Assembly: GCA_001821395.1 (NCBI GenBank)
Contig: MHLM01000007.1
Coordinates: forward strand, 1-29,245
Direction of reading: 5' to 3'
DNA length: 29,245 nt
Origin: Candidatus Lloydbacteria bacterium RIFCSPHIGHO2_02_FULL_50_18
GTDB taxonomy: Bacteria > Patescibacteriota > Minisyncoccia > Phycocordibacterales > UBA6899
In this document: positions 3,021 to 22,553 of the stretch, in pieces
Layout of the letters: each line of letters starts with the position of its first letter
How positions within the stretch are numbered: position 1 is the first letter of the stretch
Notes under the pieces: generated by a model
Seen by the model: only the letters and a program-made list of their open reading frames with translations
Databases searched by the model: none
What the model was told of the DNA's origin: nothing
Program-made: the position numbers and the translations under genes

Positions 3021-6000
3021 TTATTTTACGTCGACCTCATCGATCGTATTGCGTCTCTTCAAGTACAGTCTCGTGAGCAGGAGTGTAAGGATGACAAGCA
3101 CGATGAGGAAATAAACTGAACTATCTGAAAGATGCAGTTTGTCCGATACTGACCCGACCACAGCGGCAAGTCCGCGCTTCGTGCTTGCACCAGCGACGAT
3201 CCCTTCTTCTTTAGTGACACTCGGATCAGTCTGCGTTCCTGAAAGCTCACCTCCCACATGCGGCATTGTTGCCAACAGGTCGGACAGCGCAAGCCTCCCA
3301 CGATTAACGAGCTTCGGTTCCGGTTTTTCCTTTTCATTCACGTCTATGGCTGCGAACACCCCTTCATTGCCGTTATTGACGCTTACCCCATTAGAAGCTC
3401 CATCGTTCGTATTCATTCCCACAAGAGGTAGTACGGAGGTTGTCGTACTGCCTTCTCTGTGGATCTTGTTGATAAGATCTCGGAATGCCGCAACCTCACT
3501 CACCTGCAAAGACGTCAGTGGAAATTCTTGCTTACAATAGAGCTCATTGACCTTCTTTTGTGTTGTGTAATACACATACCCCGTATTGCCCCGTAAATTC
3601 CAGATCGAAAGCACATCGACAGCGTACCTGTCTTGGAATGCGCGCACCGCGGCATCGGTAGTCGTATCGAAGAATCCGTTGACATCGAGCGTCGTGAATC
3701 CTTCGTAATTCCTGAGAAACGTCTGAAGCTTCGTCACTTCAACCGGATTGTTGTTTGCACCAAGCCTCATGTATGCATTGAGATATGAACACTCCGTTGA
3801 TTCACCGAGCACCGCACCCTGCGTCAGCTCAATTCCGATCGCACCCTCCGTGTCGGTCGTTGAGATCGGACGGAAATATGTCGAAACACCGGAAGGTATT
3901 CCCTCGATAGTGACGCTATGTGTCGTCGAGGCAATTGTGTCGGTCGCAGTAGAGAGATCGTATCCATAGAGCGGAGATGCTCCGAGACTCAAGACGGGTA
4001 GAAGTCCGTACGTCACGCGACTGGTCGCAGCGATGTTGGTATCCCAGGTCACCGTCACGGTCGTTGTGCCGGTGCTGGCAAGATGTTCATTGAATATCGC
4101 AAGCGTGACCGATCCCCCCCCGCAGTTAACTGTACAACCACCTCCACCGGGGACAACATTAACCGTACGCGTGACGGGTGTCGCGGCATGACCCTGTGCA
4201 TCAGCAACATTATAGGAAAGTGTATATGCACCGATCACACTTGCATTAACCAAACCACTGACAACAATACTCGAGGTAATGTCTCCGTCTTCCGGATCAT
4301 GCGCTGTTGCCCCGGGGTCAGCAAAGGTCGTATCCATGGTGATGCTCATTGGATCGGCACCAAGGAGCGTGAGCGTCGGACCCGTGTCGCGCTCATCATT
4401 ATCTTGCGGTGAATCACAGCCCGGATCTCGTGGGAAGTCTGCAAATCCGTCGCCATCGTTATCGCTCCCGTCTGAGCACGCTGCAGGAGGCTCGCCGCCA
4501 CAATTTTGCGTACACACGGCGGGAGTAACGTTCACTGTGCGCGACTGTGTGTCTGCCGCAACATCCTGCGAATCAGTGGCATTGTACTCGATCACATATG
4601 CACCTGCGACCGCCGTATTTACGGTACCAAAAATGACGAGCTTCCCGTCGATCTGTCCGTCTTCCTGATCGTGTACGGTTGCATTCGGTTCTCCATAAGA
4701 TGCGCCAACAACGAGATTCATTACGATGTCACCCAACAGCGTGATCATCGGCTTTGCATTTTCGCTATCGTCTTCCGAGGAACTACAACCCGGATCGAGC
4801 GGAAAATCGGTCAACTCATCTCCGTCATTGTCCCTTCCGTCAGAGCAACTTGTAACAACTCTTACGGTACGTATTTTTGTATCAGCGGCGAGACCCTTTG
4901 CATCTGCTGCGTCATAGGTAACCGTGTAAGTACCGAGCACGTTTGTATCAACGACACCCGTCGTCACGAGCGTGATTGCTCCTTCTTCAGGATCAATAGC
5001 CGTTGCGCTCGGATCAATGAATGTCACACCAAGATGGATCTCGAATGGATTGTCACCGAGCACGGTGATGACCGGCTGCTCATTCTCATCGTTATCCTCC
5101 GAAGAGTCACATCCTGCGTCCCGAACCACCTCAATGTTTCCTGAAAAGTCGACATGACCGTCACCATCATTATCGATACCATCATTACACTCCGTAACGG
5201 GAGGGGTCACGTTCACAATGCGCGTCTTTTCAGCGGCTGCAAGCCCCTTCGAATCTGAAACATTATAGTGAAGCGTGTATGAACCAACAATAGACGTATC
5301 AACGGTGTCCGTCATTAAAATACTTGCAGCAGGGATGACACCATCCTCTTCATCAAATGCCGTTGCACCGATATCGGTAAACGTACCACCCTGCGTAATA
5401 CTAAAGGGATTTGCTCCGACCACGGTAATAACGGGAGCGTTGTTCTCATCATTATCATTCGGACCTTCGCATCCTAGATCTCCACCGGCAAAGTCGGTCT
5501 TTCCGTCATGATCATTATCCTTCCCGTCAGCACACGCTGCGACGACGCGAACGATGCGCGTCTTCGTGTCAGCTGAGATATTCAGTGAATCGGTTGCATT
5601 ATAAGTGATCGTGTAATTGTTAAGGACATTTGTATCAAGGACACCCGTCGTCACCAGCTTTGAGAGCGTAATGTCTCCGTCTTCCGGGTCAACCGCAATT
5701 GCTCCTTCATCAGCGTAGGCATCACCAAGCGTAACAATAGCGGGGTCCGCTCCGATGACGGTGATGACCGGCTGCTCATTCTCATCATTATCCTCCGGGC
5801 CCTCACAGCCAGCGTCACCTCCGACGAAATCGGTCTCGCTGTCGTTGTCGTTGTCTTTCCCGTCGCGACATTGCGGTTTATTTGATTCGGTATTCAAGAA
5901 ATTTTGCCCCGCCAATACTGCACCCGGATCAAGATTCAAAAAATAACATCCGTTATACATTGAGCTGACCGGTGACGTCTCCGTCCATCCGCTCCGAGCG

Positions 6001-7649
6001 ACTTCGCAAAGCAGGTAGTTGCCCGGAATAACATCGCTGAACACATATGAACCATCGGCGCTTGTTGTCGTATTCAACGTAAGCCCGTTTCCTGCCACTT
6101 CAGTAAGGGTGATTTCCCAACCTCCTATGCCCACTTCAGCACTATCAACAACGCCATTTGCATTTTCATCGTTAATCTTTTTTCCAGAGACATTGGCAGG
6201 ATCACGCCGACACTCTGTCGTTGCGATACTCTGATAGATAGCAGTGAGATCGGCGCCAGTCGGAGCAAAATAATAATTCGACGGCTGTGATGCGATCTGC
6301 TTCATCAGCGTCGGATTCACGTGGGCGCCCAGCCCGATGGTATAAATGACCGTTCCCAGCGATTTCGCTATCGACGATTGTGTGACCGCAGCAGCACTCG
6401 CAGCCGCAGTAGACACACCCTCTACCTCTGGGACACCGTCCGAGAGCAATATCATCACATGCTTTGTACCGATACGCCCGTTTGCCGTCATCTCTTCCGT
6501 TGCCTTGTTGATCGCTTCGCTAATGTTTGTACCACCAGCCGCGGCAACAGAAGCGAAGCTGGACTTTACCGCAAAAAGATCAGAAGAAAGTGCCGAATTG
6601 AGCGTCGTAGCCGCACTATAGGTCACTACTCCTGCCTTATCAGTTAGTGGTGAAAGACCATCAATGAAAGTTGCTGCGCCGCTCTTTGCCTGGGTCAAAG
6701 GCTGCTCGGGATCTATCCCGTCAAATTTCATGCTCCCTGAACGGTCAATGATCAGCATGACATCAATCGGAGCGAGACATGCCTGTGCGAGTGTAACAGT
6801 GACAATGCGTGTTTTTGTATCAGCGGCAATATTTTGAGAATCAGTTGCGTTGTAGGTGATAGCGTATGTACCCAGTGTGTTCACGTCGACGACGCCGGTC
6901 GCAACGACCTTGTTGTTTATTTGCCCATCTTCAGCATCAAACGCTGTTGCCCCTTGATCGATGTAGATGTTGCCAAGGATGACCTCCACAGGATTATCAC
7001 CGACAATAGTGATCACCGGTTGCTGGTTTCCTGTTGGAGGAGGAGTCGTGCACCCCTCTCCATCAAGAGCAACATGTAGCCCATAAAGCAATCCAGCGGG
7101 ATTCAACTGTGGTGAACTTCCTACTTGTGCCCAATTTTTTACAGTGAAAGAAAGGGTGTTCGCTCCAACATGCAGACCAGAAAGTACATTGTAAGTATCT
7201 TTTTCCCCATCGAAGTAATTATATTCGGTATTATCTCCACCGATCGGATTCCCATTAAGTGCAACAGTATATGAATTATCAGCAGCAATCACGAGCGAAC
7301 CATTAAGTGGGACCGAGGGTAGATCGAATGATCTTGTAAAAGTCACTGTTTCATCGACCGAAGGATCAAGCACGAGATGCGAACTCCATATCCATGTTGC
7401 CCCGGGAATTAACGCTGTCCACCTTACGTTACCATTATACGTCGGCGTAGCATTCACTCCTCCCATGATGGTTGTGTGAATATCAGAAACGATATCAACA
7501 TCACAAACAACGGGCTGATCACTCAGAACGGTCGCATACGCAACCAGAGGTGCACCACCACCTTGCAGCAGCAAAGAAAATGCCATCAGCATTGCGACTG
7601 ATCGCTGTTTTAAAATTTGTTTTTTCGATGAGGTAAATATGGTCTGCAT
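3021..7649 (-). CDS. giant secreted/cell-surface multidomain protein
   Basis: 1542-aa ORF with an N-terminal signal peptide (KKQILKQR then a hydrophobic stretch). VWA domain with an MIDAS-like DRSGSM motif (about nt 6212-6782). SdrD/CnaB-like fold (GGWEITL...DGSYVF). Six tandem repeats, each a Cys/Asp-rich motif (C.DG.DND.DG..DF..D.GC) followed by an Ig-like PVIT..G.NP...GxxYxDxGAxAxDxxDGxI domain. Peptidoglycan-binding-like segment (LQTFLRNYEGF...AVRAFQDRYA). C-terminal hydrophobic helix followed by KRRN. Confidence 0.8.
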   Translation of the reverse strand: MQTIFTSSKKQILKQRSVAMLMAFSLLLQGGGAPLVAYATVLSDQPVVCDVDIVSDIHTTIMGGVNATPTYNGNVRWTALIPGATWIWSSHLVLDPSVDETVTFTRSFDLPSVPLNGSLVIAADNSYTVALNGNPIGGDNTEYNYFDGEKDTYNVLSGLHVGANTLSFTVKNWAQVGSSPQLNPAGLLYGLHVALDGEGCTTPPPTGNQQPVITIVGDNPVEVILGNIYIDQGATAFDAEDGQINNKVVATGVVDVNTLGTYAITYNATDSQNIAADTKTRIVTVTLAQACLAPIDVMLIIDRSGSMKFDGIDPEQPLTQAKSGAATFIDGLSPLTDKAGVVTYSAATTLNSALSSDLFAVKSSFASVAAAGGTNISEAINKATEEMTANGRIGTKHVMILLSDGVPEVEGVSTAAASAAAVTQSSIAKSLGTVIYTIGLGAHVNPTLMKQIASQPSNYYFAPTGADLTAIYQSIATTECRRDPANVSGKKINDENANGVVDSAEVGIGGWEITLTEVAGNGLTLNTTTSADGSYVFSDVIPGNYLLCEVARSGWTETSPVSSMYNGCYFLNLDPGAVLAGQNFLNTESNKPQCRDGKDNDNDSETDFVGGDAGCEGPEDNDENEQPVITVIGADPAIVTLGDAYADEGAIAVDPEDGDITLSKLVTTGVLDTNVLNNYTITYNATDSLNISADTKTRIVRVVAACADGKDNDHDGKTDFAGGDLGCEGPNDNDENNAPVITVVGANPFSITQGGTFTDIGATAFDEEDGVIPAASILMTDTVDTSIVGSYTLHYNVSDSKGLAAAEKTRIVNVTPPVTECNDGIDNDGDGHVDFSGNIEVVRDAGCDSSEDNDENEQPVITVLGDNPFEIHLGVTFIDPSATAIDPEEGAITLVTTGVVDTNVLGTYTVTYDAADAKGLAADTKIRTVRVVTSCSDGRDNDGDELTDFPLDPGCSSSEDDSENAKPMITLLGDIVMNLVVGASYGEPNATVHDQEDGQIDGKLVIFGTVNTAVAGAYVIEYNATDSQDVAADTQSRTVNVTPAVCTQNCGGEPPAACSDGSDNDGDGFADFPRDPGCDSPQDNDERDTGPTLTLLGADPMSITMDTTFADPGATAHDPEDGDITSSIVVSGLVNASVIGAYTLSYNVADAQGHAATPVTRTVNVVPGGGGCTVNCGGGSVTLAIFNEHLASTGTTTVTVTWDTNIAATSRVTYGLLPVLSLGASPLYGYDLSTATDTIASTTHSVTIEGIPSGVSTYFRPISTTDTEGAIGIELTQGAVLGESTECSYLNAYMRLGANNNPVEVTKLQTFLRNYEGFTTLDVNGFFDTTTDAAVRAFQDRYAVDVLSIWNLRGNTGYVYYTTQKKVNELYCKQEFPLTSLQVSEVAAFRDLINKIHREGSTTTSVLPLVGMNTNDGASNGVSVNNGNEGVFAAIDVNEKEKPEPKLVNRGRLALSDLLATMPHVGGELSGTQTDPSVTKEEGIVAGASTKRGLAAVVGSVSDKLHLSDSSVYFLIVLVILTLLLTRLYLKRRNTIDEVDVK
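4200..5900 (-). repeat. intragenic tandem coding repeats (about 290 bp x6) inside the giant protein gene
   Basis: Repeated protein modules (MopE-like motif plus Ig-like domain). The repeats also show up as families of similar spurious plus-strand ORFs in this interval. Confidence 0.6.
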
Positions 7650-7985: not shown

Positions 7986-10181
7986 ATGGATGATAAATTT
8001 CTGACCCCATACAAGCCCGAGGAGACTGAAGAGAAAGTATACAAAGCGTGGCTCGATTCGGGAGTATTCAATCCCGATATTTGTATACAAAAAGGAATCA
8101 CAAAAAATACGGCGGAAACTTTTTCAATGGTCCTTCCTCCGCCAAACGTTACCGGCATACTGCACATGGGTCATGCGGCAATGATCGCGATCGAAGACAT
8201 CATTGTGCGATACGAGCGCATGAACGGAAAAAGAACACTCTGGATCCCCGGGACTGACCATGCCGCGATCGCAACACAATCAAAAGTCGAAAAGATCATC
8301 GAAAAGGAAGGGACGAACAAACATAAACTGGGGCGTGATGCATTCATGATTCGCGTTGAACAGTTCGCGCAAGAAAGTCATGACACGATCGTCAACCAAA
8401 TAAAAAAAATGGGCGCATCGATTGACTGGAGTCGCGAAGCGTTTACGCTTGATGAGAAGCGTAGTCTTGCCGTCCGCACCGCATTCAAGCGCATGTATGA
8501 CGATGGACTCATCTATCGCAGCGCACGCATTGTGAACTGGGACCCGAAAGGACAGACGACGATCTCTGATGATGAGATCGTTCACGAAGAGCGAAAGGCG
8601 ACGATGTATACATTTCGCTATTGGAAAGACTTCCCTATCGCGATCTCAACCACGCGTCCTGAAACAAAAGTCGGCGATGTTGCGGTCGCAGTGCATCCCG
8701 ACGATGCGCGCTACAGCAAGTTTGTCGGACAAATTTTTTCCGGTGAGTTCTGCGGTGTGCCGCTCCATATCACTATTGTTGCAGATGAGTCCGTCGAGAA
8801 AGATTTTGGTACCGGTGCACTTGGTGTCACTCCTGCACACAGTCAGATCGACTGGGAGATCGCTGCGCGGCACAAGCTTTCTCACAAGCAGGTCATCAAT
8901 GAGTATGCGAAGATGATCGTCGGCGACGAACGCCTCATGGGGAAGAAGGTCGGTGAGGCGCGTACCGCCATTGTTGAATGGATTCGCGCAGAGGGTCTTA
9001 TGGAAAAAGACGAAGAAGTGACACAAAATGTCGCAACGGCAGAGCGCACCGGCGGCATTATCGAGCCGCTTCCAAAATTGCAGTGGTGGATCGACGTTGA
9101 AAAAAATTTCGCCATGAAGGGCGATGGGATACCCGGTATCACAAAGGGGCAAAATGCCACACTCAAGGAAGTGATGACTAAGGCGGTCGCAGCGCATGCG
9201 ATCACCATTCTCCCCGAGCGTTTCGAAAAAACGTACTTCCAATGGATCGATAATCTTCGCCCATGGTGCATATCGCGTCAGATATGGTATGGACACCGAA
9301 TCCCCGTCTGGTACAAGGACGAAGAAGTATACTGCGGGATAGAAGCACCAACAGGAGCGGGGTGGACCCAGGATGAGGATACCCTCGATACGTGGTTCTC
9401 TTCCGGACTCTGGTCATTCTCGACCCTCGGTTGGCCGAACATGGAGGCCAAAGATCTCCAGGACTATCATCCGACCAACCTGCTTGAAACAGGGTATGAC
9501 ATCATTTTCTTTTGGGTTGCACGCATGATACTCATGTCCGGATATCACCTCGGCACCGTCCCCTTCCGCACCGTGTATCTTCATGGACTTGTCCGAGACG
9601 CAAAAGGAAAGAAGATGAGCAAGTCACTCGGTAATGCGATCGACCCACTTGAAATGATCGAAAAATATGGCGCGGACGCGACGAGACTTTCTGTCATCAT
9701 CGGGGCAGGACCGGGTTCGGACGTCAGCCTTGCTGAAGACAAAATACGCGGCTATAAAAAATATACGAACAAGATCTGGAATATCGCTCGCTTCATTCTT
9801 TCAAATACTGAAGGGGTGGACTTGTCAACAAAACCGACGCTCACCGCTCGTGAGGTAGAGATATTGTCTGAATTCAATGCGGTGATCGCATACACCGATC
9901 TGCACATACGAGAATTCAAGCTCCACCTGGCGGGAGAAAAGCTCTACGACTACACGTGGCATATCTTTGCGGATATTATTCTCGAAGAGAGCAAGGAAGC
10001 GCTGCTTTCCGATGATAGTGCCGTAAGTACTTCACGCAAATGGCTACTTCGGCACATCTTTGAAGAACTATTAAAATTGCAACACCCCTTCATGCCATTC
10101 GTAACCGAAGAGATATGGGGTTCACTCCCAAACAGAAAACAACCGCTCATTATTACTCCGTGGCCAAAGCAGGCAATATAA
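7986..10181 (+). CDS. valS: valine--tRNA ligase (ValRS), lacking the usual C-terminal coiled-coil domain
   Basis: PPPNVTGILHMGHA (ValRS-type HIGH region), KMSKS, WCISRQ, and an editing-domain segment. The 731-aa protein ends right after the anticodon-binding region. Confidence 0.8.
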   Translation: MDDKFLTPYKPEETEEKVYKAWLDSGVFNPDICIQKGITKNTAETFSMVLPPPNVTGILHMGHAAMIAIEDIIVRYERMNGKRTLWIPGTDHAAIATQSKVEKIIEKEGTNKHKLGRDAFMIRVEQFAQESHDTIVNQIKKMGASIDWSREAFTLDEKRSLAVRTAFKRMYDDGLIYRSARIVNWDPKGQTTISDDEIVHEERKATMYTFRYWKDFPIAISTTRPETKVGDVAVAVHPDDARYSKFVGQIFSGEFCGVPLHITIVADESVEKDFGTGALGVTPAHSQIDWEIAARHKLSHKQVINEYAKMIVGDERLMGKKVGEARTAIVEWIRAEGLMEKDEEVTQNVATAERTGGIIEPLPKLQWWIDVEKNFAMKGDGIPGITKGQNATLKEVMTKAVAAHAITILPERFEKTYFQWIDNLRPWCISRQIWYGHRIPVWYKDEEVYCGIEAPTGAGWTQDEDTLDTWFSSGLWSFSTLGWPNMEAKDLQDYHPTNLLETGYDIIFFWVARMILMSGYHLGTVPFRTVYLHGLVRDAKGKKMSKSLGNAIDPLEMIEKYGADATRLSVIIGAGPGSDVSLAEDKIRGYKKYTNKIWNIARFILSNTEGVDLSTKPTLTAREVEILSEFNAVIAYTDLHIREFKLHLAGEKLYDYTWHIFADIILEESKEALLSDDSAVSTSRKWLLRHIFEELLKLQHPFMPFVTEEIWGSLPNRKQPLIITPWPKQAI

Positions 10182-11957: not shown

Positions 11958-12042
11958 CCTAACAATTTACCCACGAAACACCAGAAAACCTCAATCGCTG
12001 TGCTTTTCAACCCTTCAAACTCTTTCAGAGTTTGTCCTCGGC

Positions 12043-12069
12043 AAAAAACACCCTTACGGGTGTTTTTTT
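12043..12069. terminator. rho-independent terminator downstream of tRNA-Phe
   Basis: A-run, stem acaccc(12048-12053)/gggtgt(12058-12063) with loop ttac, then T7. It is enclosed by an outer inverted repeat, gtcctcggca/tgccgaggac, that copies the tRNA 3' end. Confidence 0.6.
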
Positions 12070-12073
12070 CTTG

Positions 12074-12146
12074 TGCCGAGGACCAGGGTTGAACTGGTGA
12101 CCCCTCGCTCTTCAGGCGAATGCTCTACCAACTGAGCTACCTCGGC
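12074..12146 (-). tRNA. tRNA-Phe (GAA)
   Basis: The reverse complement folds as a cloverleaf: GCCGAGG TA GCTC AGTTGGTA GAGC A TTCGC CTGAAGA GCGAG GGGTC ACCAG TTCAACC CTGGT CCTCGGC A. The anticodon is GAA and CCA is not encoded. Confidence 0.85.
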
Positions 12147-12286
12147 AAGAGAGGAATAGAATGAGGATATCATATATACTCATTTTTTCCGAACGCCGCC
12201 GTAGGTATGTTTCATACCTCGGCGTTCTACGTATTACTAATCGGTTCAACCCTGAGGTCGCAACGATACGAGCCAGAATATCCTAT

Positions 12287-12571
12287 TTAGCGAACTTTAT
12301 CAAGAAGACCCTGGAGATTCGGTAAAGACGCGGCTCCCGAATCAAGTGTCGAAATAGTATGCACGAGTTTTTGGTATGTCTCAAGATATTTCACCAAATA
12401 GGGCTGTACGAAGTAATACGACCAACCCAATACACCAAGGATCACGAGCCAATAGATAAAGGTAAATATCCGCCCCCACAGCATGCTTCGGTGCATTCCA
12501 CGGAGAATGCGGTTATTTTCCTTTTCGATATCGAGAAGTTTGGTCAATGTGTCATGGTCTGTTTCAGGCAT
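12287..12571 (-). CDS. hypothetical small membrane protein
   Basis: One predicted TM helix (IFTFIYWLVILGVLGW). The ATG at 12571 is preceded by TATACT and 6 nt, a leaderless-type arrangement. The ORF-track start at 12577 is a TTG. Confidence 0.45.
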   Translation of the reverse strand: MPETDHDTLTKLLDIEKENNRILRGMHRSMLWGRIFTFIYWLVILGVLGWSYYFVQPYLVKYLETYQKLVHTISTLDSGAASLPNLQGLLDKVR

Positions 12572-12614
12572 AAACAAAGTATATCAAGAAATAATTGCAC
12601 AACAAACCCTACGT

Positions 12615-12638
12615 GGTGCCCCTGGCCGGAATCGAACG
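12615..12638 (-). pseudogene. tRNA 3'-terminal fragment (T-loop plus acceptor 3' strand plus CCA)
   Basis: Reverse complement reads GTTCGATTCCGGCCAGGGGCACCA. It is similar to, but not identical with, the 3' end of the adjacent tRNA-Arg, and no matching 5' part lies within 80 nt. Confidence 0.45.
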
Positions 12639-12659
12639 CACTATTTTTCCTGCAACAAC

Positions 12660-12734
12660 TGGTGCCCCCAGCGGGAATCGAACCTACATCTACTCCTTAG
12701 GACGGAGCTGTTCTATCCATTGAACTATGGGGGC
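12660..12734 (-). tRNA. tRNA-Arg (CCT)
   Basis: 75-nt cloverleaf: GCCCCCA TA GTTC AATGGATA GAAC A GCTCC GTCCTAA GGAGT AGAT GTAGG TTCGATT CCCGC TGGGGGC A CCA. The anticodon is CCT, CCA is encoded, and the T-stem has one A-C mismatch. Confidence 0.75.
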
Positions 12735-12894
12735 ACAAGTTGTTGCAGGAAATAAAATTAATACAAGAATCAAACTGACATCTCCGCCCTACTGGCGCTG
12801 TACACCTTTTGGCTTTTTGTTTCACTTCGTTCACAAAACGACTCAAAAGGTCTTGCGGTGTGGCCCCATCGGAATGGGTTCCCAAAGCCACACC

Positions 12895-12945
12895 TCACCT
12901 TAGGACGGAGCTGTTCTATCCATTGAACTACAGAGGCGACGAGCG
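12895..12945 (-). pseudogene. tRNA 5'-half fragment (acceptor 5' strand through anticodon loop), paralogous to tRNA-Arg(CCT)
   Basis: 33 nt (D-arm to anticodon loop) are identical to tRNA-Arg(CCT). The acceptor strand is GCCTCTG rather than GCCCCCA. The sequence diverges after the anticodon loop and there is no T-arm. Confidence 0.45.
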
Positions 12946-12962
12946 TGATTTCCCTCAAGAAT

Positions 12963-12990
12963 ATAAAAGTCCACAATTGTGGACTTTTAT
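12963..12990. terminator. palindromic bidirectional terminator
   Basis: aaaagtccaca at tgtggactttt is a perfect 11-bp stem flanked by an A-run and a T-run. It lies downstream of the glutaredoxin-like gene on the minus strand. Confidence 0.55.
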
Positions 12991-13019
12991 ATAGTATGTT
13001 TTCCTACTCTCTTTCGCAA

Positions 13020-13268
13020 CTATGCGGGAACGATACCCAGTAACTCTTGGAGTTTCGATTTATTGAATCCTACTATAATATCCTTATCAATGATGATGAC
13101 GGGGACCCCCATTTGTCCGCTCTTCTCAATCATCTCCTGACGCTTCGCAAGATCTTTCCCTACGTCAAATTCCTGGAATTCGACATTATTTTTTTGAAAA
13201 AATTCTTTCGCCAGCTTGCAATAACCACATGATTCTGTCGAATAAATTTGAACGCTTTTCATAGGCAT
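13020..13268 (-). CDS. glutaredoxin/NrdH-like thioredoxin-fold protein
   Basis: 82-aa ORF with a CGYC redox motif near the N-terminus (VQIYSTESCGYCKLAKEF) and a conserved GVPVIII..D..IVGF segment. Confidence 0.75.
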   Translation of the reverse strand: MPMKSVQIYSTESCGYCKLAKEFFQKNNVEFQEFDVGKDLAKRQEMIEKSGQMGVPVIIIDKDIIVGFNKSKLQELLGIVPA

Positions 13269-13295
13269 CTGGAGTTACCGATTAATCGTGAACGC

Positions 13296-13304
13296 ATTAT
13301 AGCA
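13296..13304 (-). promoter_or_regulatory. extended -10 promoter TGCTATAAT (within the conserved motif TCTCGTGCTATAAT)
   Basis: Plus strand attatagca is TGCTATAAT on the minus strand, about 28 nt upstream of the grx-like start. The same 14-mer recurs at 22054-22067. Confidence 0.45.
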
Positions 13305-13466
13305 CGAGACAACGGGGGGCATGCAAATGGGGAATTTAATACAAGAATTAGTTGCGCGCCGAGCAAAGAGGAACGATCTCTTGAATTTTACATTATAGGG
13401 TGAATGGTCTTCATGAAAATTAAAAAAGAAAACCGCTGGGCGAACCATGCGGCTAAAATTAACACT

Positions 13467-13841
13467 TTAAGGGTAGGGATGCTTTTGCACTATCTCAATA
13501 TTTTCCACCTGAGACAGTTCATCAAAGATGCGTGATACGATCCTCAGCGCCTCAGATGGATCAGCTCCTTCTTTCCAATCAGTACCGCCCTGATTTGCCA
13601 TTCCAGAACCATTTTGCTGTTCATCAATAAGCTTTATCCCACCGGCAGGAATATTGTCTTCCCAATGATTATCGGTATAGTAAATGGAATAATCAACGCA
13701 CGCCACCCCCCTTCTGTCTTCGGAGTCTCCGATACATATCGTAACTCCTTTAAGTTTTTCTCCGTACAGTTCCTTGATTGGGTCAAGGTCTGAACCGTTG
13801 CCATAAGTGCCGCCTCTCATGATCCGAGCGAATTTCGACAT
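13467..13841 (-). CDS. hypothetical protein
   Basis: The start was chosen at MSKFARIM, which is preceded by GGAAGGAGAG 8 nt upstream. There is no recognisable family, and the composition is Gly/Asp-rich. Confidence 0.5.
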   Translation of the reverse strand: MSKFARIMRGGTYGNGSDLDPIKELYGEKLKGVTICIGDSEDRRGVACVDYSIYYTDNHWEDNIPAGGIKLIDEQQNGSGMANQGGTDWKEGADPSEALRIVSRIFDELSQVENIEIVQKHPYP

Positions 13842-13877
13842 TTGAGTCTCTCCTTCCAAGGTTTGATTTTCTTTTTT

Positions 13878-13886
13878 GATTATGCA
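13878..13886 (-). promoter_or_regulatory. candidate -10 (TGCATAATC) for the hypothetical gene at 13841
   Basis: It matches the TGCATAAT element used by the rnpB promoter in this window and lies about 37 nt upstream of the start. Confidence 0.35.
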
Positions 13887-14010
13887 CCATCAAACAAATA
13901 TGTCAAGGCTTGATTAAAATCTTTGCTTAACAATTATCTAGACGTTTAAGCTCAAAAAAATATATTTCAACATCAAAAACACTTCACCTTACTAATACAC
14001 AACGAGACGA

Positions 14011-14283
14011 TGTTAGAATCAGCGATATCCCTGAAGTAGAAACGACGACGAGTGCGCTAAGGCACAAAAAATCTCATTCTATGCGCGTAGGCAAAGCCTC
14101 CCGCACGTCGGTCCTCGAATCAGAGCCGAATGAAGCGGAACGATTTCCCTCAAATTACACGAGGTGCGGAATCAATGCGGGTAAGCAAAGCTTTCCTCGC
14201 ACGGCAAGCTTCGGAAATGGAAATCGTTGCAAATCACAAAAAAACAATAAGAACGAGATATCTCGTTCTTATTGTTTTTTTGT
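14011..14283 (+). ncRNA. candidate structured ncRNA (unknown family) with duplicated hairpin modules
   Basis: An extended -10 TGTTAGAAT (14011-14019) leads to about 250 nt of non-coding sequence. Two related modules (about 14084-14150 and 14174-14230) differ by a compensatory change in one stem-loop (aggc-aaa-gcct versus aagc-aaa-gctt). The region ends at a strong terminator. Confidence 0.3.
14236..14283. terminator. strong bidirectional terminator (17-bp perfect palindrome)
   Basis: A7, then aacaataagaacgagat|atctcgttcttattgtt (14243-14276, no loop, centre gatatc), then T7. It sits between the candidate ncRNA (+) and tRNA-Gly (-). Confidence 0.65.
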
Positions 14284-14312
14284 GATTTGCGGACTTCCGC
14301 TTCACTCAACTC

Positions 14313-14386
14313 TGGTGCGGGTAGGGAGAATCGAACTCCCGTCTCAACCTTGGGAAGGTCGCATTCTACCACTAAACCATACCCGC
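14313..14386 (-). tRNA. tRNA-Gly (CCC)
   Basis: Reverse complement GCGGGTA TG GTTT AGTGGTA GAAT G CGACC TTCCCAA GGTTG AGAC GGGAG TTCGATT CTCCC TACCCGC A CCA. The anticodon is CCC and CCA is encoded. Confidence 0.8.
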
Positions 14387-19481: not shown

Positions 19482-21983
19482 TTACGGTACGACTCTACCT
19501 GAATTCAATGAATTAAGTGCATCGTTAACAGGCTGGGTCGGCGCAGCGTATTCTTTATCGAACGCCCCGCGTCCTGCCTTCAGATTCTTTATAATCGTAG
19601 CCACCTCTTTGTTCTCGGGGTTCAATGTTTGCACATCAGTGAATTGTTGTAATGCCTCAGCGTTTCTACCCAATCGGTCGTACGCAAGGCCGAGGAAATA
19701 TTTCGCATCAGCGTATGCGGGATTCAAGTAGACCGCCGCCTCGAATTGGTCAGCAGCAGACTGGTAATCGGACTTTGCATAGTAGAGATATCCGAGGGCG
19801 AAGCGCAGGAGAAAGTTGGTCGGCTCTGCGGCGACTCCATTTTGAAGCACACCTATCGCCGCTTCCGGGTTCTTATCTCCGACCTCAATCTGCACGAGGA
19901 ATGAAACCGCCTCAAGGAAGTTCGGTCGCTCAGCTAGCGCTTGATAGAGATACTCCTTTGCCTTATTTCGTTCGCCGGCTACAAATTCCAAGCGAGCGAG
20001 CACGAACAGCACGCGCGGACTCTTAGGATTGAGACGTAATGCCTGGGCATAATTCTCACGTGCCGGTACTGAAGTGTTCTGTATCCCGAGCGAACCAAGC
20101 GTGTCGTAAACACCGCCGAGCTGCAAATAATTCTCGAAGTTCGTTGGATCAAGTACGATTGAACGCTCTGCGCTCTTTCGAGCGGCAAGGATATAGCCAT
20201 TCGCTAACTCCACCGCTTGTTCTTGCGGTAATTTTTGCGTGGCGAGCTGCTGAAGCTTGATGAGTGCAAGATTTGAGATCGCACGTTGATACACATCCCG
20301 CTCCGCAAGCGCGTTCGCTCTCACGAGCGCAGTTTCGGCCATTTCAACATTGCTTTGCCCGATCGCAAGCTGAGCGTCACGGAATGCGACCAATGATGAT
20401 ACCTGGCGATACAATAGGACACTCGACGCAACGACTCCGACCATAACAACAATGATTAGCGGTGTCATCATCATAGAAAGTTTTGAATCACCGACGAATC
20501 GTAAACGGAAACTTCCTACCGCGCCCTCACTTGTGAGAAACGCGATGAGCGCGCCGGTAAAAAGGAATGCGAGCGCAAAGATCGCGATATTCGGCAGGTA
20601 GAAGAACGCAAGGCTCCAGAAATACACTACTAGGAAGAAAAGTGTGAATGCAAGAAATGCAGCAATGCGATCTTTCGCAAAAAGGGCGTAGATACGTCTT
20701 GCTTTCATGAGCAGCAACACGATGAATGCGAGCCAAAGCAGCGTCCCGATAATACCCGTTGTCCCGAAATACGTCGGAATGCGTCCAAGTCCAAAATCGA
20801 ACGTCGAATCCCAGAATGGGGTGCGATTCATATCCGTTGTCTTGAATTTCAAATATCCCGATGAAAAACGGTTCGGACTCGTGCCAAAGAGGGGTGATTC
20901 CTTGAGTGTATTCGCAACGATGTCATACGTAAACTGAGGTGTGAGTACGACCTCGGAATATGGAGATGAATGAAGCACCTTCGCAACGACGCTCGCGATC
21001 GTGCTATTGTCCTTTCCCCAAGATATCGTCGAGAGACCGCTGCCGTAAATAAAGGCAACAAGAAGGAACACCACCGCAAATATCGGAAGATGCCCCGCGA
21101 CGCGCTTGTGAACAGGCTTATGCGGATGATGAGTGCCGCTCGTCTGTGCTTCGTGAATAGCGCGCCTATGTGACCGCTCACCTTCAAATATCGCGAATGC
21201 AGTGAGCGCACTGATAAGCACAAAGAGGATGAACCATAGTACCGTGAAGTCCACCATGACCAGGAAGAAAAGCCCGAGGGAGAGGATGAGGTACGAGGGC
21301 ATGCGGAGTGTTTTGTTTTGAGGAAAGAAATAAAGCGCGGAGAGCACGAGCAGGACCAATCCGCCGACCAAGGATGCCATATCATTCCATTTTCCGACCG
21401 GAGAGGAGACATCACTCGTGAAAATGCCAAAATCCAGAAATCCCGCACCAAAGAAGTGGCGAAGGACCTGATAAAGCATCACAACAAGTCCGGAGAGGAT
21501 GAAGGACACATAGAGCGAGAGGATGCGATCACGACTCGTCAAGACGACGGACCCCATGAACATCAGGAGGAAAAGTACGATGAAAGAATTGACCGTTCCT
21601 ATATCATATCCGCTACCGATGAATGAAAGCATCGGCGTCGGAGATACGATCGCAGCAATAACGAACTGCACCACAAGCAGTGACGAGACTAACAGTAGCG
21701 AACTCTTCGGTACATCAACCTGTCCGTCGCGCAATCGTCCCGCGGCCCATATAAGCACACTCGCCAATACGAGCACTTCGAGTAGGATCATTTTTGCAAA
21801 TTCAGGAGCAATGAGCTGTCCCGGAATGAAGAAAACCGGGAGCAGGAATGAAAGACCGAGTAATATCCAAAAAAGTGATCGATCGGAAAACACCTTATGT
21901 GAAAGCACTTTCCCGAGCAGCATTCTGGCGATCGGCGAGGATTTGACGCGTGTACCGCTATCTCCTTGTTGTTCGTCTGACAT
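19482..21983 (-). CDS. polytopic membrane protein with C-terminal TPR repeats (O-antigen ligase/polymerase-like architecture)
   Basis: The start was chosen at MSDEQQ (ATG 21983), because the upstream part of the ORF-track ORF overlaps the promoter region. About 12 TM helices are followed by roughly 300 aa of TPR-like repeats (AYADAKYFLGLAYDRLGRNAEA...). The gene ends 19 nt upstream of murJ. Confidence 0.55.
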   Translation of the reverse strand: MSDEQQGDSGTRVKSSPIARMLLGKVLSHKVFSDRSLFWILLGLSFLLPVFFIPGQLIAPEFAKMILLEVLVLASVLIWAAGRLRDGQVDVPKSSLLLVSSLLVVQFVIAAIVSPTPMLSFIGSGYDIGTVNSFIVLFLLMFMGSVVLTSRDRILSLYVSFILSGLVVMLYQVLRHFFGAGFLDFGIFTSDVSSPVGKWNDMASLVGGLVLLVLSALYFFPQNKTLRMPSYLILSLGLFFLVMVDFTVLWFILFVLISALTAFAIFEGERSHRRAIHEAQTSGTHHPHKPVHKRVAGHLPIFAVVFLLVAFIYGSGLSTISWGKDNSTIASVVAKVLHSSPYSEVVLTPQFTYDIVANTLKESPLFGTSPNRFSSGYLKFKTTDMNRTPFWDSTFDFGLGRIPTYFGTTGIIGTLLWLAFIVLLLMKARRIYALFAKDRIAAFLAFTLFFLVVYFWSLAFFYLPNIAIFALAFLFTGALIAFLTSEGAVGSFRLRFVGDSKLSMMMTPLIIVVMVGVVASSVLLYRQVSSLVAFRDAQLAIGQSNVEMAETALVRANALAERDVYQRAISNLALIKLQQLATQKLPQEQAVELANGYILAARKSAERSIVLDPTNFENYLQLGGVYDTLGSLGIQNTSVPARENYAQALRLNPKSPRVLFVLARLEFVAGERNKAKEYLYQALAERPNFLEAVSFLVQIEVGDKNPEAAIGVLQNGVAAEPTNFLLRFALGYLYYAKSDYQSAADQFEAAVYLNPAYADAKYFLGLAYDRLGRNAEALQQFTDVQTLNPENKEVATIIKNLKAGRGAFDKEYAAPTQPVNDALNSLNSGRVVP

Positions 21984-22053
21984 AAATTTTTTTGATAAAC
22001 AAATAATAAATACGCACAAAATCTCTTCCTCCAAAGAGAGTAGATTACGCATG

Positions 22054-22062
22054 ATTATAGCA
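22054..22062 (-). promoter_or_regulatory. extended -10 TGCTATAAT for the TPR-membrane/murJ operon
   Basis: This is the same TCTCGTGCTATAAT 14-mer seen at 13296. It lies about 70 nt upstream of the ATG at 21983. Confidence 0.4.
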
Positions 22063-22159
22063 CGAGAAAAAGCATGCCCTTCTATCAAAAAGTGAACAAT
22101 GAAATCATTTGAATACAGAATATTGGACGTATCAAGTCTTTGCTGTTTTATTAAAAAAT

Positions 22160-22200
22160 CACATAAAAGAGAAAAGTTCGCCCTATTTGGACGAACTTTC
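22160..22200 (-). terminator. rnpB terminator
   Basis: On the minus strand: stem aaagttcg/cgaacttt (plus 22173-22180 and 22192-22199), then a T-rich run, immediately after the rnpB 3' end. Confidence 0.5.
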
Positions 22201-22203
22201 CAT

Positions 22204-22553
22204 GCACCTTGTATCGATAAGCCGAATTCTGTCCCCAAAACGCACGCTTTGGGTGGTATCCATTTATCTAGGCTCTCGGTTACCCGAAAGCTCAAGCGGC
22301 ACTTCCCAACTTACGCCAGGACACGGCCTTGCACCCAGGTAAGGATTTAGCCGTTTCACCCCCGCATTTCGGCGGGATTATCCATCGGATAAATCCGGAC
22401 GGATCCCATTTCTTTCGATCTGGGCGTCACTGCTCGCACCTCTATGGTTGCCCACGACGGGCGTTACCCGCTACCCTCTTACCACTTTCATGGTGAGCGT
22501 TCGGACTTTCCTCACTTCCCTTGCGAGAAGCGCGGATACCTAATACAAGGCTT
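22204..22553 (-). ncRNA. rnpB: RNase P RNA (bacterial RnpB)
   Basis: The minus-strand sequence contains GAGGAAAGTCCGAAC (P4 5' strand) and GGGGACAGAATTCGGCTTATCG (the universal ACAGAAnnCGGCUUA P4 3' strand). A P1 helix forms between CCTTGTAT and ATACAAGG. It also has GGTAACGCCCG and TAAATGGATACCACC segments. The region is GC-rich and non-coding, with only spurious ORFs. Confidence 0.8.

Follow-up and report, generated by a model that had tools for sequence, protein, structure and literature searches.

What occupies the gap behind the tRNA-Gly(CCC) gene of Candidatus Lloydbacteria bacterium RIFCSPHIGHO2_02_FULL_50_18: an RNA gene of its own, or sequences that belong to the tRNA? The stretch of DNA analyzed here, hereafter the window, comprises 29,245 nucleotides (nt) of contig MHLM01000007.1 and represents a Patescibacteria genome (Paceibacteria-like, candidate phyla radiation or CPR), the LepA relatives of which are all CPR metagenome-assembled genomes. 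The intergenic gap in question (13842-14312) measures 471 nt and has a gene of 124 amino acids (aa) on one side and tRNA-Gly(CCC) on the other; the minus strand encodes both. An earlier note, made from the letters of the window, had proposed for 14011-14283 a structured non-coding RNA of the plus strand, made of two tandem modules with compensatory base changes and ending at a terminator. With a probability of about 0.5, sequence comparison instead points to the interval being the 3′ flank of tRNA-Gly(CCC), consisting of a stack of gene-less modules linked to the tRNA 3′ end together with a terminator, and not a free-standing small RNA (sRNA) gene. The parts on which this reading turns are the following.

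14313-14386, minus strand: tRNA-Gly(CCC) with encoded CCA, called by ARAGORN and by the Rfam tRNA model (67.5 bits); its last 10-21 nt are the source of the repeats
14116-14312, minus strand: conserved unit of 197 nt, the first base of which stands directly after the CCA of tRNA-Gly
14229-14290, both strands: perfect palindrome of 31+31 nt (inverted repeat I1, 100 % complementary)
14176-14202: hairpin of module 2; read on the tRNA strand, the 3′ arm (14176-14185) has the sequence CTTACCCGCA, which matches the last 10 nt of the tRNA at 9 of 10 positions, and the 5′ arm is complementary
14082-14106: hairpin of module 1, present in this lineage alone; the tRNA strand reads GTGCGGGAGG, CTTTG, CCTACGCGCA

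The two stem-loops that had been taken as RNA modules do exist (gcg-t-aggc-aaa-gcct-cc-cgc at 14085-14104 and gcg-ggt-aagc-aaa-gctt-tcct-cgc at 14177-14200), and the paired difference between their inner stems, AGGC/GCCT versus AAGC/GCTT, is real. Together the two segments, spaced 94 nt apart, constitute a direct repeat of 25 nt with 80 % identity (14078-14102 and 14172-14196); the motif that they share has 2 matches in 29 kb where about 0.23 would be expected by chance, and at least 2 matches were obtained in 2 of 100 shuffles. Their origin can be traced to the neighbouring tRNA. Read on the tRNA strand, module 1 starts with a complement of the acceptor end that has suffered one deletion; after the loop comes a copy of the last 10 nt of the tRNA, matching at 9 of 10 positions. 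Module 2 likewise combines such a copy with its complement. Since each module holds a copy of the tRNA end and the complement of this copy, a module amounts to the acceptor 3′ strand folded onto a complementary strand. The last ten bases of tRNA-Gly, CCTACCCGCA, find four matches with at most one mismatch in 29 kb, about one being expected: the 3′ strand of the tRNA, its 5′ strand (on the other DNA strand), 14082-14091 and 14176-14185, the two module copies both being in tRNA orientation. Just these last 10 nt of the tRNA end are kept in the modules of the window, where similarity to the T-loop part does not reach significance. The paired g>a / c>t exchange, formerly interpreted as selection on RNA structure, thus distinguishes paralogous copies that both stem from the acceptor end of tRNA-Gly; it shows that complementarity has been kept, but template switching in DNA palindromes can produce the same outcome. 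Nor does a two-module architecture persist in evolution, as module 1 is without counterpart in either of the two homologous lineages described below; at its position the related contig L087 (L numbers designate related loci) carries CGATTCCCCCTACGTG, a decayed copy of the 3′ end of its own tRNA. As for module 2, across three lineages 7 of its 9 pairs never vary, no pair shows a two-sided change, and in L174 one pair is disrupted. Recognizing two hairpins of common tRNA-Gly acceptor-end origin avoids the false annotation of a "two-module sRNA with compensatory changes".

How could copies of a tRNA end come to lie behind the tRNA itself? The contigs L174 and L175 carry, after tRNA-Gly, an insertion of 183 nt with a palindromic terminator and a structured module inside. 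Two perfect 21-nt copies of TTCGATTCTCCCTACCCGCAC, the last 21 nt of tRNA-Gly, start 183 nt apart in these contigs, and the second copy is followed by the flank that adjoins the tRNA in the window (GAGTTGAGTGAAGCGGAAGTC, then the palindrome onward). An insertion bounded by TTCGATTCTCCCTACCCGCAC and continued by the flank of the window bears the signature of site-specific insertion at the T-loop-to-3′-end core of the tRNA; both the window and L087 are unoccupied for it. In L087, the 197-nt unit is followed by a 15/19 copy of the 3′ end of that contig's own tRNA. The presence of the unit among relatives is patchy, since it is found at LepA 93 % and 84 % and is absent at 91 % (L169) and 86 % (L178), these two carrying other modules at its position. 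From the available sequences, we infer that the 197-nt unit, too, came in by an insertion of this type.

Several further events have marked the same tRNA in related genomes. Beyond the clean insertion of L174 (6399-6603, identical in L175), a second, decayed module lies further downstream, so that three modules are stacked at one tRNA. L167 (DivIC 77 %; region 3393-5106) is alone among the relatives in having a gene for a large serine recombinase of 418 aa just downstream of tRNA-Gly. The same region contains a 250-nt insertion upstream of tRNA-Gly, flanked by a duplication of the first 20 nt of the tRNA, and this insertion and the intergenic region of the window have the 11-mers GCAAAGCCTCC and GCAAATCACAA in common. 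The only difference between the near-identical strains L147 and L149 (8434-8480) concerns the 5′ strand of the module that trails tRNA-Gly: in L149 this strand complements the tRNA end perfectly (19/19), whereas L147 has an unrelated stretch of 12 nt. The difference looks like a recent conversion or template-switch event.

Modules of this sort are not confined to tRNA-Gly. In related loci, the tRNA's own 3′ end is found copied (at least 16/20 matches) 20-190 nt downstream of 15 of 62 tRNA-Gly genes, 8 of 92 for Arg, 5 of 68 for Phe, 2 of 6 for Glu and 2 of 4 for Leu. The modules of the relatives span 100-190 nt and are bounded by a direct repeat of the T-loop-to-3′-end sequence of the tRNA concerned; close relatives differ in having or lacking a given module, and its boundaries are clean. 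The modules share an order of parts on the tRNA strand, which begins with a palindromic terminator; next come a stretch complementary to the acceptor 3′ strand, a hairpin and a stretch complementary to the T region, and last a core of two hairpins and the direct copy of the tRNA end. One kind of core, type B, can be aligned between the modules of Gly, Glu and Phe, and has a 3-bp helix in which four pair types occur as well as a helix GGUCGC/GUGACC with a conserved G:U pair. The clamp of type B is formed by the last ~20 nt of the tRNA and their complement, and often matches the neighbouring tRNA. A covariance model of type B (R1), built from 8 members and searched in 2.2 Mb of related loci, gave about 34 matches, 29 of which lie 19-172 nt downstream of a tRNA, behind eight specificities and always on the tRNA strand. 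Relatives' modules from the four places tested had no family match in Rfam, and our literature searches found no description of such tRNA-trailing modules. The following loci exemplify type B.

L080, 8533-8670
L124, 8789-8934
L162, 8590-8735
L075, 11494-11591
L178, 6034-6169
L077, 21575-21682
L132, 9702-9878

Within the window, the presumed counterpart of these modules is the 197-nt unit, the sole part of the intergenic region that has homologs, homology covering 14116-14312 and the tRNA. Three independent lineages carry it: the window; L087 (= L189-L191), at 8917-9129 and LepA 84 %; and L174/L175, at 6605-6805, from Parcubacteria GW2011_GWA2_47_7 with LepA 93 %. Its similarity is 77-78 % over ~200-216 nt in blastn, with nhmmer E-values of 1e-63 to 1e-66. 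Looking up relatives by DivIC and LepA yielded just these three lineages; many of the contigs retrieved end at or near the tRNA. The contigs L081-L086 are identical to the window and contribute no variation. Searching the intergenic region by blastn and nhmmer against 80 genome loci (LepA 64-83 %) yielded no homolog, and the best of these loci, L001, stops 349 nt beyond lepA; viral contigs scanned with the motif of the unit and with that of the modules gave no match either. Module 1, the -10-like motif TGTTAGAAT and everything else left of ~14116 cannot be aligned in L087 and L174. The internal elements of the unit, apart from the palindrome and module 2, are these.

14295-14312, minus strand: 5′ strand of the outer helix H1, GAGTTGAGTGAAGCGGAA on the tRNA strand, pairing with 14123-14140 (inverted repeat I2, 18 bp)
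14219-14228, minus strand: 5′ strand of the inner helix H2, AACGATTTCC on the tRNA strand, forming a 10-nt perfect inverted repeat (I10) with 14139-14148
14148-14164: variable hairpin of 4-6 bp inside H2; its sequence is unrelated in the three lineages and pairs in each, weakly (-1.5 to -4.7 kcal/mol)
14123-14148, minus strand: 3′ strands of H2 (14139-14148) and H1 (14123-14140), contiguous on the tRNA strand

On the minus strand, 14116-14312 matches the topology of the relatives' modules, with an outer helix, a hairpin on the 5′ side, an inner helix contiguous with the outer one on the 3′ strand and two inner hairpins. The likeness is one of architecture and not of sequence. H1, which encloses the palindrome and begins with the base directly following CCA, is unrelated to the tRNA, and H2 (AACGATTTCC) merely loosely resembles the T-loop region; unlike the helices of the relatives, neither is built from the 3′ 19-23 nt of the tRNA and their complement. 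The fold of the whole unit has a z-score of -12.07 on the minus strand, and once the palindrome is replaced by GAAA, the minus strand (-53.3 kcal/mol, z -4.5) is predicted to fold 8 kcal/mol more stably than the plus strand (-45.3 kcal/mol, z -3.2). Across the three lineages, H1 (16 pairs counted, 2 of them changed on both sides) keeps 97.9 % pairing on the minus strand as against 91.7 % on the plus strand; for H2 (8-10 bp, 8 pairs counted), which is almost invariant, the values are 100 % and 95.8 %. Pairing of H1 and H2 is worse on the plus strand because four G:U cells become A:C there. RNAalifold energies (-89.5 minus vs -94.1 plus) do not separate the strands. Taken over three lineages, the strand of the conserved structure leans to that of the tRNA. 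Independently of this, a motif of the form GAGCGAAGCG was noticed just downstream of tRNA-Gly in the window (14299-14307, as GTGAAGCGG) as well as in L002, L124, L147/L149 and L079, and GAGCGAAGCG-type motifs recur in loop positions of some modules.

Such a structure invites the idea that the unit functions as a minus-strand RNA, a 3′ trailer or read-through RNA of tRNA-Gly in which H1, the long hairpin, H2 and two inner hairpins form one nested fold, and which could act in tRNA 3′-end processing or be released as a stable RNA. We regard this as unlikely, though far from negligible. The start of H1 at the first base beyond CCA, the better pairing and greater stability on the minus strand and the topology common to tRNA-trailing modules of relatives all agree with it; so do the type-B modules, which lie on the tRNA-sense strand with their conserved G:U pair and their 3-bp helix of four pair types, and the high conservation of the block 14177-14228. 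Forming H1 and H2 would, however, require read-through of the strong terminator inside the fold, and the comparison comprises three lineages, in which H2 never varies, H1 shows 2 two-sided pairs and the G:U bias amounts to 4 cells. A trailer RNA is compatible with modules that arrive by insertion and does not exclude them.

In the terminator of the unit, the earlier note had recognized a palindrome, and rightly so, except that it is not 17 bp long: perfect 31-nt arms, 14229-14259 and 14260-14290, include the A7 and T7 runs and nine further pairs outside them. Its inner stem contains GC pairs and stands between A7 and T7, as would suit an intrinsic terminator for both directions; the hairpin followed by T7 which had been assigned to the plus strand is present as stated and would serve the minus strand equally. 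Most likely, the palindrome ends the divIC-tRNA-Gly transcript. Of its pairs, 29 were counted across the three lineages, 12 of them changed on both sides, and 97.7 % are paired. The hairpin at the end of the proposed RNA thus stays paired through many two-sided changes; module 2 shows none among orthologs. Like bidirectional Rho-independent terminators, the palindrome has its GC inner stem between A7 and T7 and lies directly downstream of a tRNA gene; unlike them, it has a 31-bp stem that far exceeds the needs of termination and is nested in two more conserved helices. Long perfect A-rich/T-rich palindromes come after tRNA genes in many related loci.

The palindrome has also left traces in assemblies. 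L081 (ENA k141_1104469) is a fold-back, inverted-duplicate chimera joined exactly at the 62-nt palindrome 14229-14290; besides L081, three contigs identical to the window stop inside tRNA-Gly; and many assemblies of the source organism and its relatives stop within or just after this tRNA (L084-L086, L179-L188), which, like the recombinase gene of L167, would accord with integration activity at this site. The tRNA-Gly locus is an assembly breakpoint, probably owing to palindromes and strain heterogeneity.

Under the tRNA-flank reading, the locus would have been shaped by repeated site-specific insertion at the T-loop-to-3′-end core of the tRNA, in the manner of tRNA-targeting integrative elements. 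With each insertion the tRNA would be restored and its 3′ end left in a further copy downstream; the terminator that ends the divIC-tRNA-Gly transcript would be brought in by the modules, and inverted copies of the tRNA end would make the hairpins. Their complementarity could have been kept either by selection on a single-stranded, tRNA-sense fold (as RNA, or as single-stranded DNA in recombination) or by template switching that corrects palindromes, and module 1 and the -10-like motif would be decaying, lineage-specific remnants. That the modules of the window and those of the relatives descend from a common source is what we infer from their resemblance.

A number of observations weigh against this account. 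No relative offers a precise empty site for the 197-nt unit, so that its status as an insertion rests on the flanking repeat in L087 and on the patchy distribution. No integrase or recombinase gene lies in or adjoining 13842-14312. In 2.2 Mb of related loci nhmmer detected no other copy of the unit, which is single-copy at each locus. The type-B covariance model has no match in the window at E up to 1, and a profile hidden Markov model (HMM) of the relatives' 5′ module matches module 2 weakly (E 0.03 within the intergenic region, E 2 over the whole window) and module 1 not at all. H1 spans from the tRNA end across module 2, a poor fit to modules 1 and 2 as separate insertions. The block 14177-14228, which differs at 3 positions from L087 and at ~8 from L174, seems too conserved for a neutral scar, and its conservation suggests a function. 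The G:U pairs of H1 and H2, 4 cells on the tRNA strand and none the other way, hint at RNA, small as the count is. Finally, a plus-strand sRNA would account for the interval differently: transcribed from TGTTAGAAT or another lineage-specific promoter, it would comprise module 2 and the conserved GGCAAGCTTCGGAAATGGAAATCG and end at the bidirectional terminator.

This last alternative, the original proposal in its full or in a shortened form, appears to us quite improbable. The extended -10-like motif TGTTAGAAT does stand at 14011-14019 on the plus strand, and the T7 follows the terminator hairpin on the same strand; the consensus scan called no plus-strand promoter at 14011, and neither this promoter nor module 1 is conserved. 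The minus strand lies here between the terminator and the next promoter (13906-13879), which would make the plus strand simpler to transcribe. It is also on the plus strand that a G:U pair of module 2 in the window and L087 becomes G:C in L174, that the HMM of the relatives' 5′ module matches module 2, and that RNAalifold gives an energy similar to that of the minus strand. Set against these points are the A:C mismatches of H1 on the plus strand, the position of its partner strand 14295-14312 beyond the terminator and hence outside the RNA, and the lack of covariation of module 2 among orthologs. The folding energies bear on the same question. The whole interval folds well on both strands (z -7.9 plus, -7.4 minus), a score that is strong because of the palindrome; without the terminator, the proposed RNA body (14025-14228, plus) reaches z -0.94 and 35 of 200 shuffles fold equally well. 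The proposed two-module sRNA body is no more stable than shuffled sequence. In keeping with the earlier note, no Rfam family matches, be it tmRNA, 6S RNA, SRP RNA, a riboswitch or a known sRNA: scanning the intergenic region at gathering and permissive thresholds gave nothing real, and the best permissive scores for 13842-14312, which reach 23-26 bits where 60-70 would be required, all stem from the palindrome. What stands of the structured RNA is that a conserved, non-coding, structure-forming element overlaps the interval; a two-module sRNA of the plus strand is unsupported.

A small protein encoded on the plus strand is a far more remote explanation still. The interval had been described as ORF-free over 370 bp; the gene-free gap in fact reaches 471 nt, yet it contains mechanical open reading frames (ORFs) of 177, 51 and 36 aa, none conserved. 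The 36-aa ORF (14175-14285) has an ATG at 14175 with GAGGTG 8 nt upstream; a peptide-like RVSKAFLAR.ASEM.IVA is readable in all three lineages, and by a count on the alignment third codon positions account for 4 of the 8 substitutions in the conserved block. The start differs by lineage (ATG, AGG, CTG), however, a 2-nt indel breaks the upstream frame, and the stop position differs per lineage. The ORF of the window extends across the stem of the terminator and has no Pfam match. With start, frame and stop not conserved, both this ORF and the 51-aa ORF (14130-14285) were rejected.

Returning to the tRNA flank, can the unit and the modules of relatives be assigned to a known system? The kind is known, namely integration at tRNA genes that leaves displaced fragments; successive integrations at tRNA sites leaving partial tRNAs have been documented (10.1101/2020.12.28.424599). 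What sets the present modules apart is their tiny size, the lack of any gene and a conserved fold that includes the tRNA end in inverted form. As in tRNA-targeting islands (Islander-type; Prochlorococcus tycheposons), a direct repeat of the T-loop-to-3′-end sequence bounds the insertion and the tRNA stays intact (10.1101/2020.12.28.424599; PMC4383910). Presence varies among close relatives in both cases, and repeats stack downstream, newer arrivals pushing older ones away. The modules differ from such islands in being 100-200 nt long, with no integrase or cargo gene inside and none adjoining in the window, and in folding into conserved multi-helix structures, in which the direct copy of the tRNA end usually pairs with an additional, inverted one.

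Comparison with other short elements is also instructive. Cis-mobilizable elements, with their flanking att sites, and miniature inverted-repeat transposable elements (MITEs) are remnants of mobile elements that lack autonomy; like them, the unit is short, gene-less and bounded by repeats, with terminal inverted complementarity (H1, 18 bp). Unlike MITEs, it is single-copy in every locus examined, not dispersed, and tied to one tRNA 3′ end. A MITE was accordingly considered for the unit and rejected, there being one copy per locus, no other in 2.2 Mb and none in viral contigs. Integron attC sites and the attP hairpin of CTX phage are folded, single-stranded recombination sites. By analogy only, the modules resemble them in their imperfect palindromes, in the conservation of structure over sequence, in strand-specific features and in being stacked at one fixed insertion point; they differ in that no integron integrase or Xer-type partner has been identified here. 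The 3′ external transcribed spacer of E. coli leuZ yields an sRNA from a tRNA 3′ trailer, and the sequence of the window is similarly non-coding, directly downstream of a tRNA and on the same strand. Unlike the leuZ-type trailer sRNAs, it lies beyond a terminator. Group I introns of Patescibacteria tRNA genes, which sit at 35/36 in the anticodon loop, were considered too and found unrelated (PMC13011429).

It is conceivable, although we would not expect it to prove correct, that the 197-nt unit and the 100-190-nt modules of the relatives constitute one undescribed class, inserting at tRNA 3′ ends and stacking in a cassette-like fashion, the functional part of which would be the tRNA-sense fold (clamped by a copy of the last ~20 nt of the tRNA and its complement), acting as an attC-like folded single-strand site or as a tRNA-mimicking RNA. 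Very compact as they are, CPR genomes retain structured non-coding modules of 100-200 nt behind many of their tRNA genes. Were the modules mobile, they would represent an unusually small site-specific element in organisms whose mobile DNA is poorly known; were they RNAs, a new tRNA-linked RNA class would be added. The modules also account for assembly breaks and fold-backs at the tRNA genes of these genomes. The module family of the relatives deserves a dedicated study.

The other tRNA genes of the window have comparable surroundings. tRNA-Phe (12073-12146, minus) is followed by a palindromic terminator at 12043-12072, then by the inverted complement of its own 3′ end, which a hairpin (12016-12033) divides into GCCGAGGAC (12034-12042) and AAGGGTTGAA (12006-12015). 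The flank 12006-12072 thereby represents the first half of the architecture seen in the relatives' modules, without the second copy of the tRNA end. Downstream of tRNA-Arg(CCT) (12660-12734, minus), a diverged second copy of the tRNA-Arg 3′ end lies at a distance of 20 nt (12616-12641), and ~200 nt upstream there is, at 12898-12930, an exact 33-nt copy of the anticodon/D region (12695-12727). These partial tRNA-Arg repeats fall in a sparsely coding stretch, 12147-13467.

Regarding the genes around the gap, divIC and lepA precede tRNA-Gly(CCC) on the same (minus) strand, and the order lepA, divIC, tRNA-Gly(CCC), glutaredoxin, tRNA-Arg(CCT), tRNA-Phe(GAA) is kept across Paceibacteria. The left border of the gap is formed by the following features.

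13906-13879, minus strand: likely promoter of the 124-aa gene, TTGACA-16-CATAAT (promoter scan, 11/12 consensus positions), the left limit of the non-coding stack
13467-13841, minus strand: the 124-aa gene, to which no function is assigned and which has no Pfam match

Among relatives, tRNA-Arg, tRNA-Phe and sometimes tRNA-Gly flip their orientation (L007, L020, L024, L025, L039, L040 and others) while the order remains unchanged, which suggests local inversions in this tRNA-rich stretch. Across the whole window, Rfam matches are restricted to RNase P RNA and three tRNAs. The RNase P RNA (22202-22551, minus) is of bacterial class A and scores only 119 bits where the threshold is 100; its 3′ part is overlapped by a mechanical ORF of 937 aa (19482-22295).

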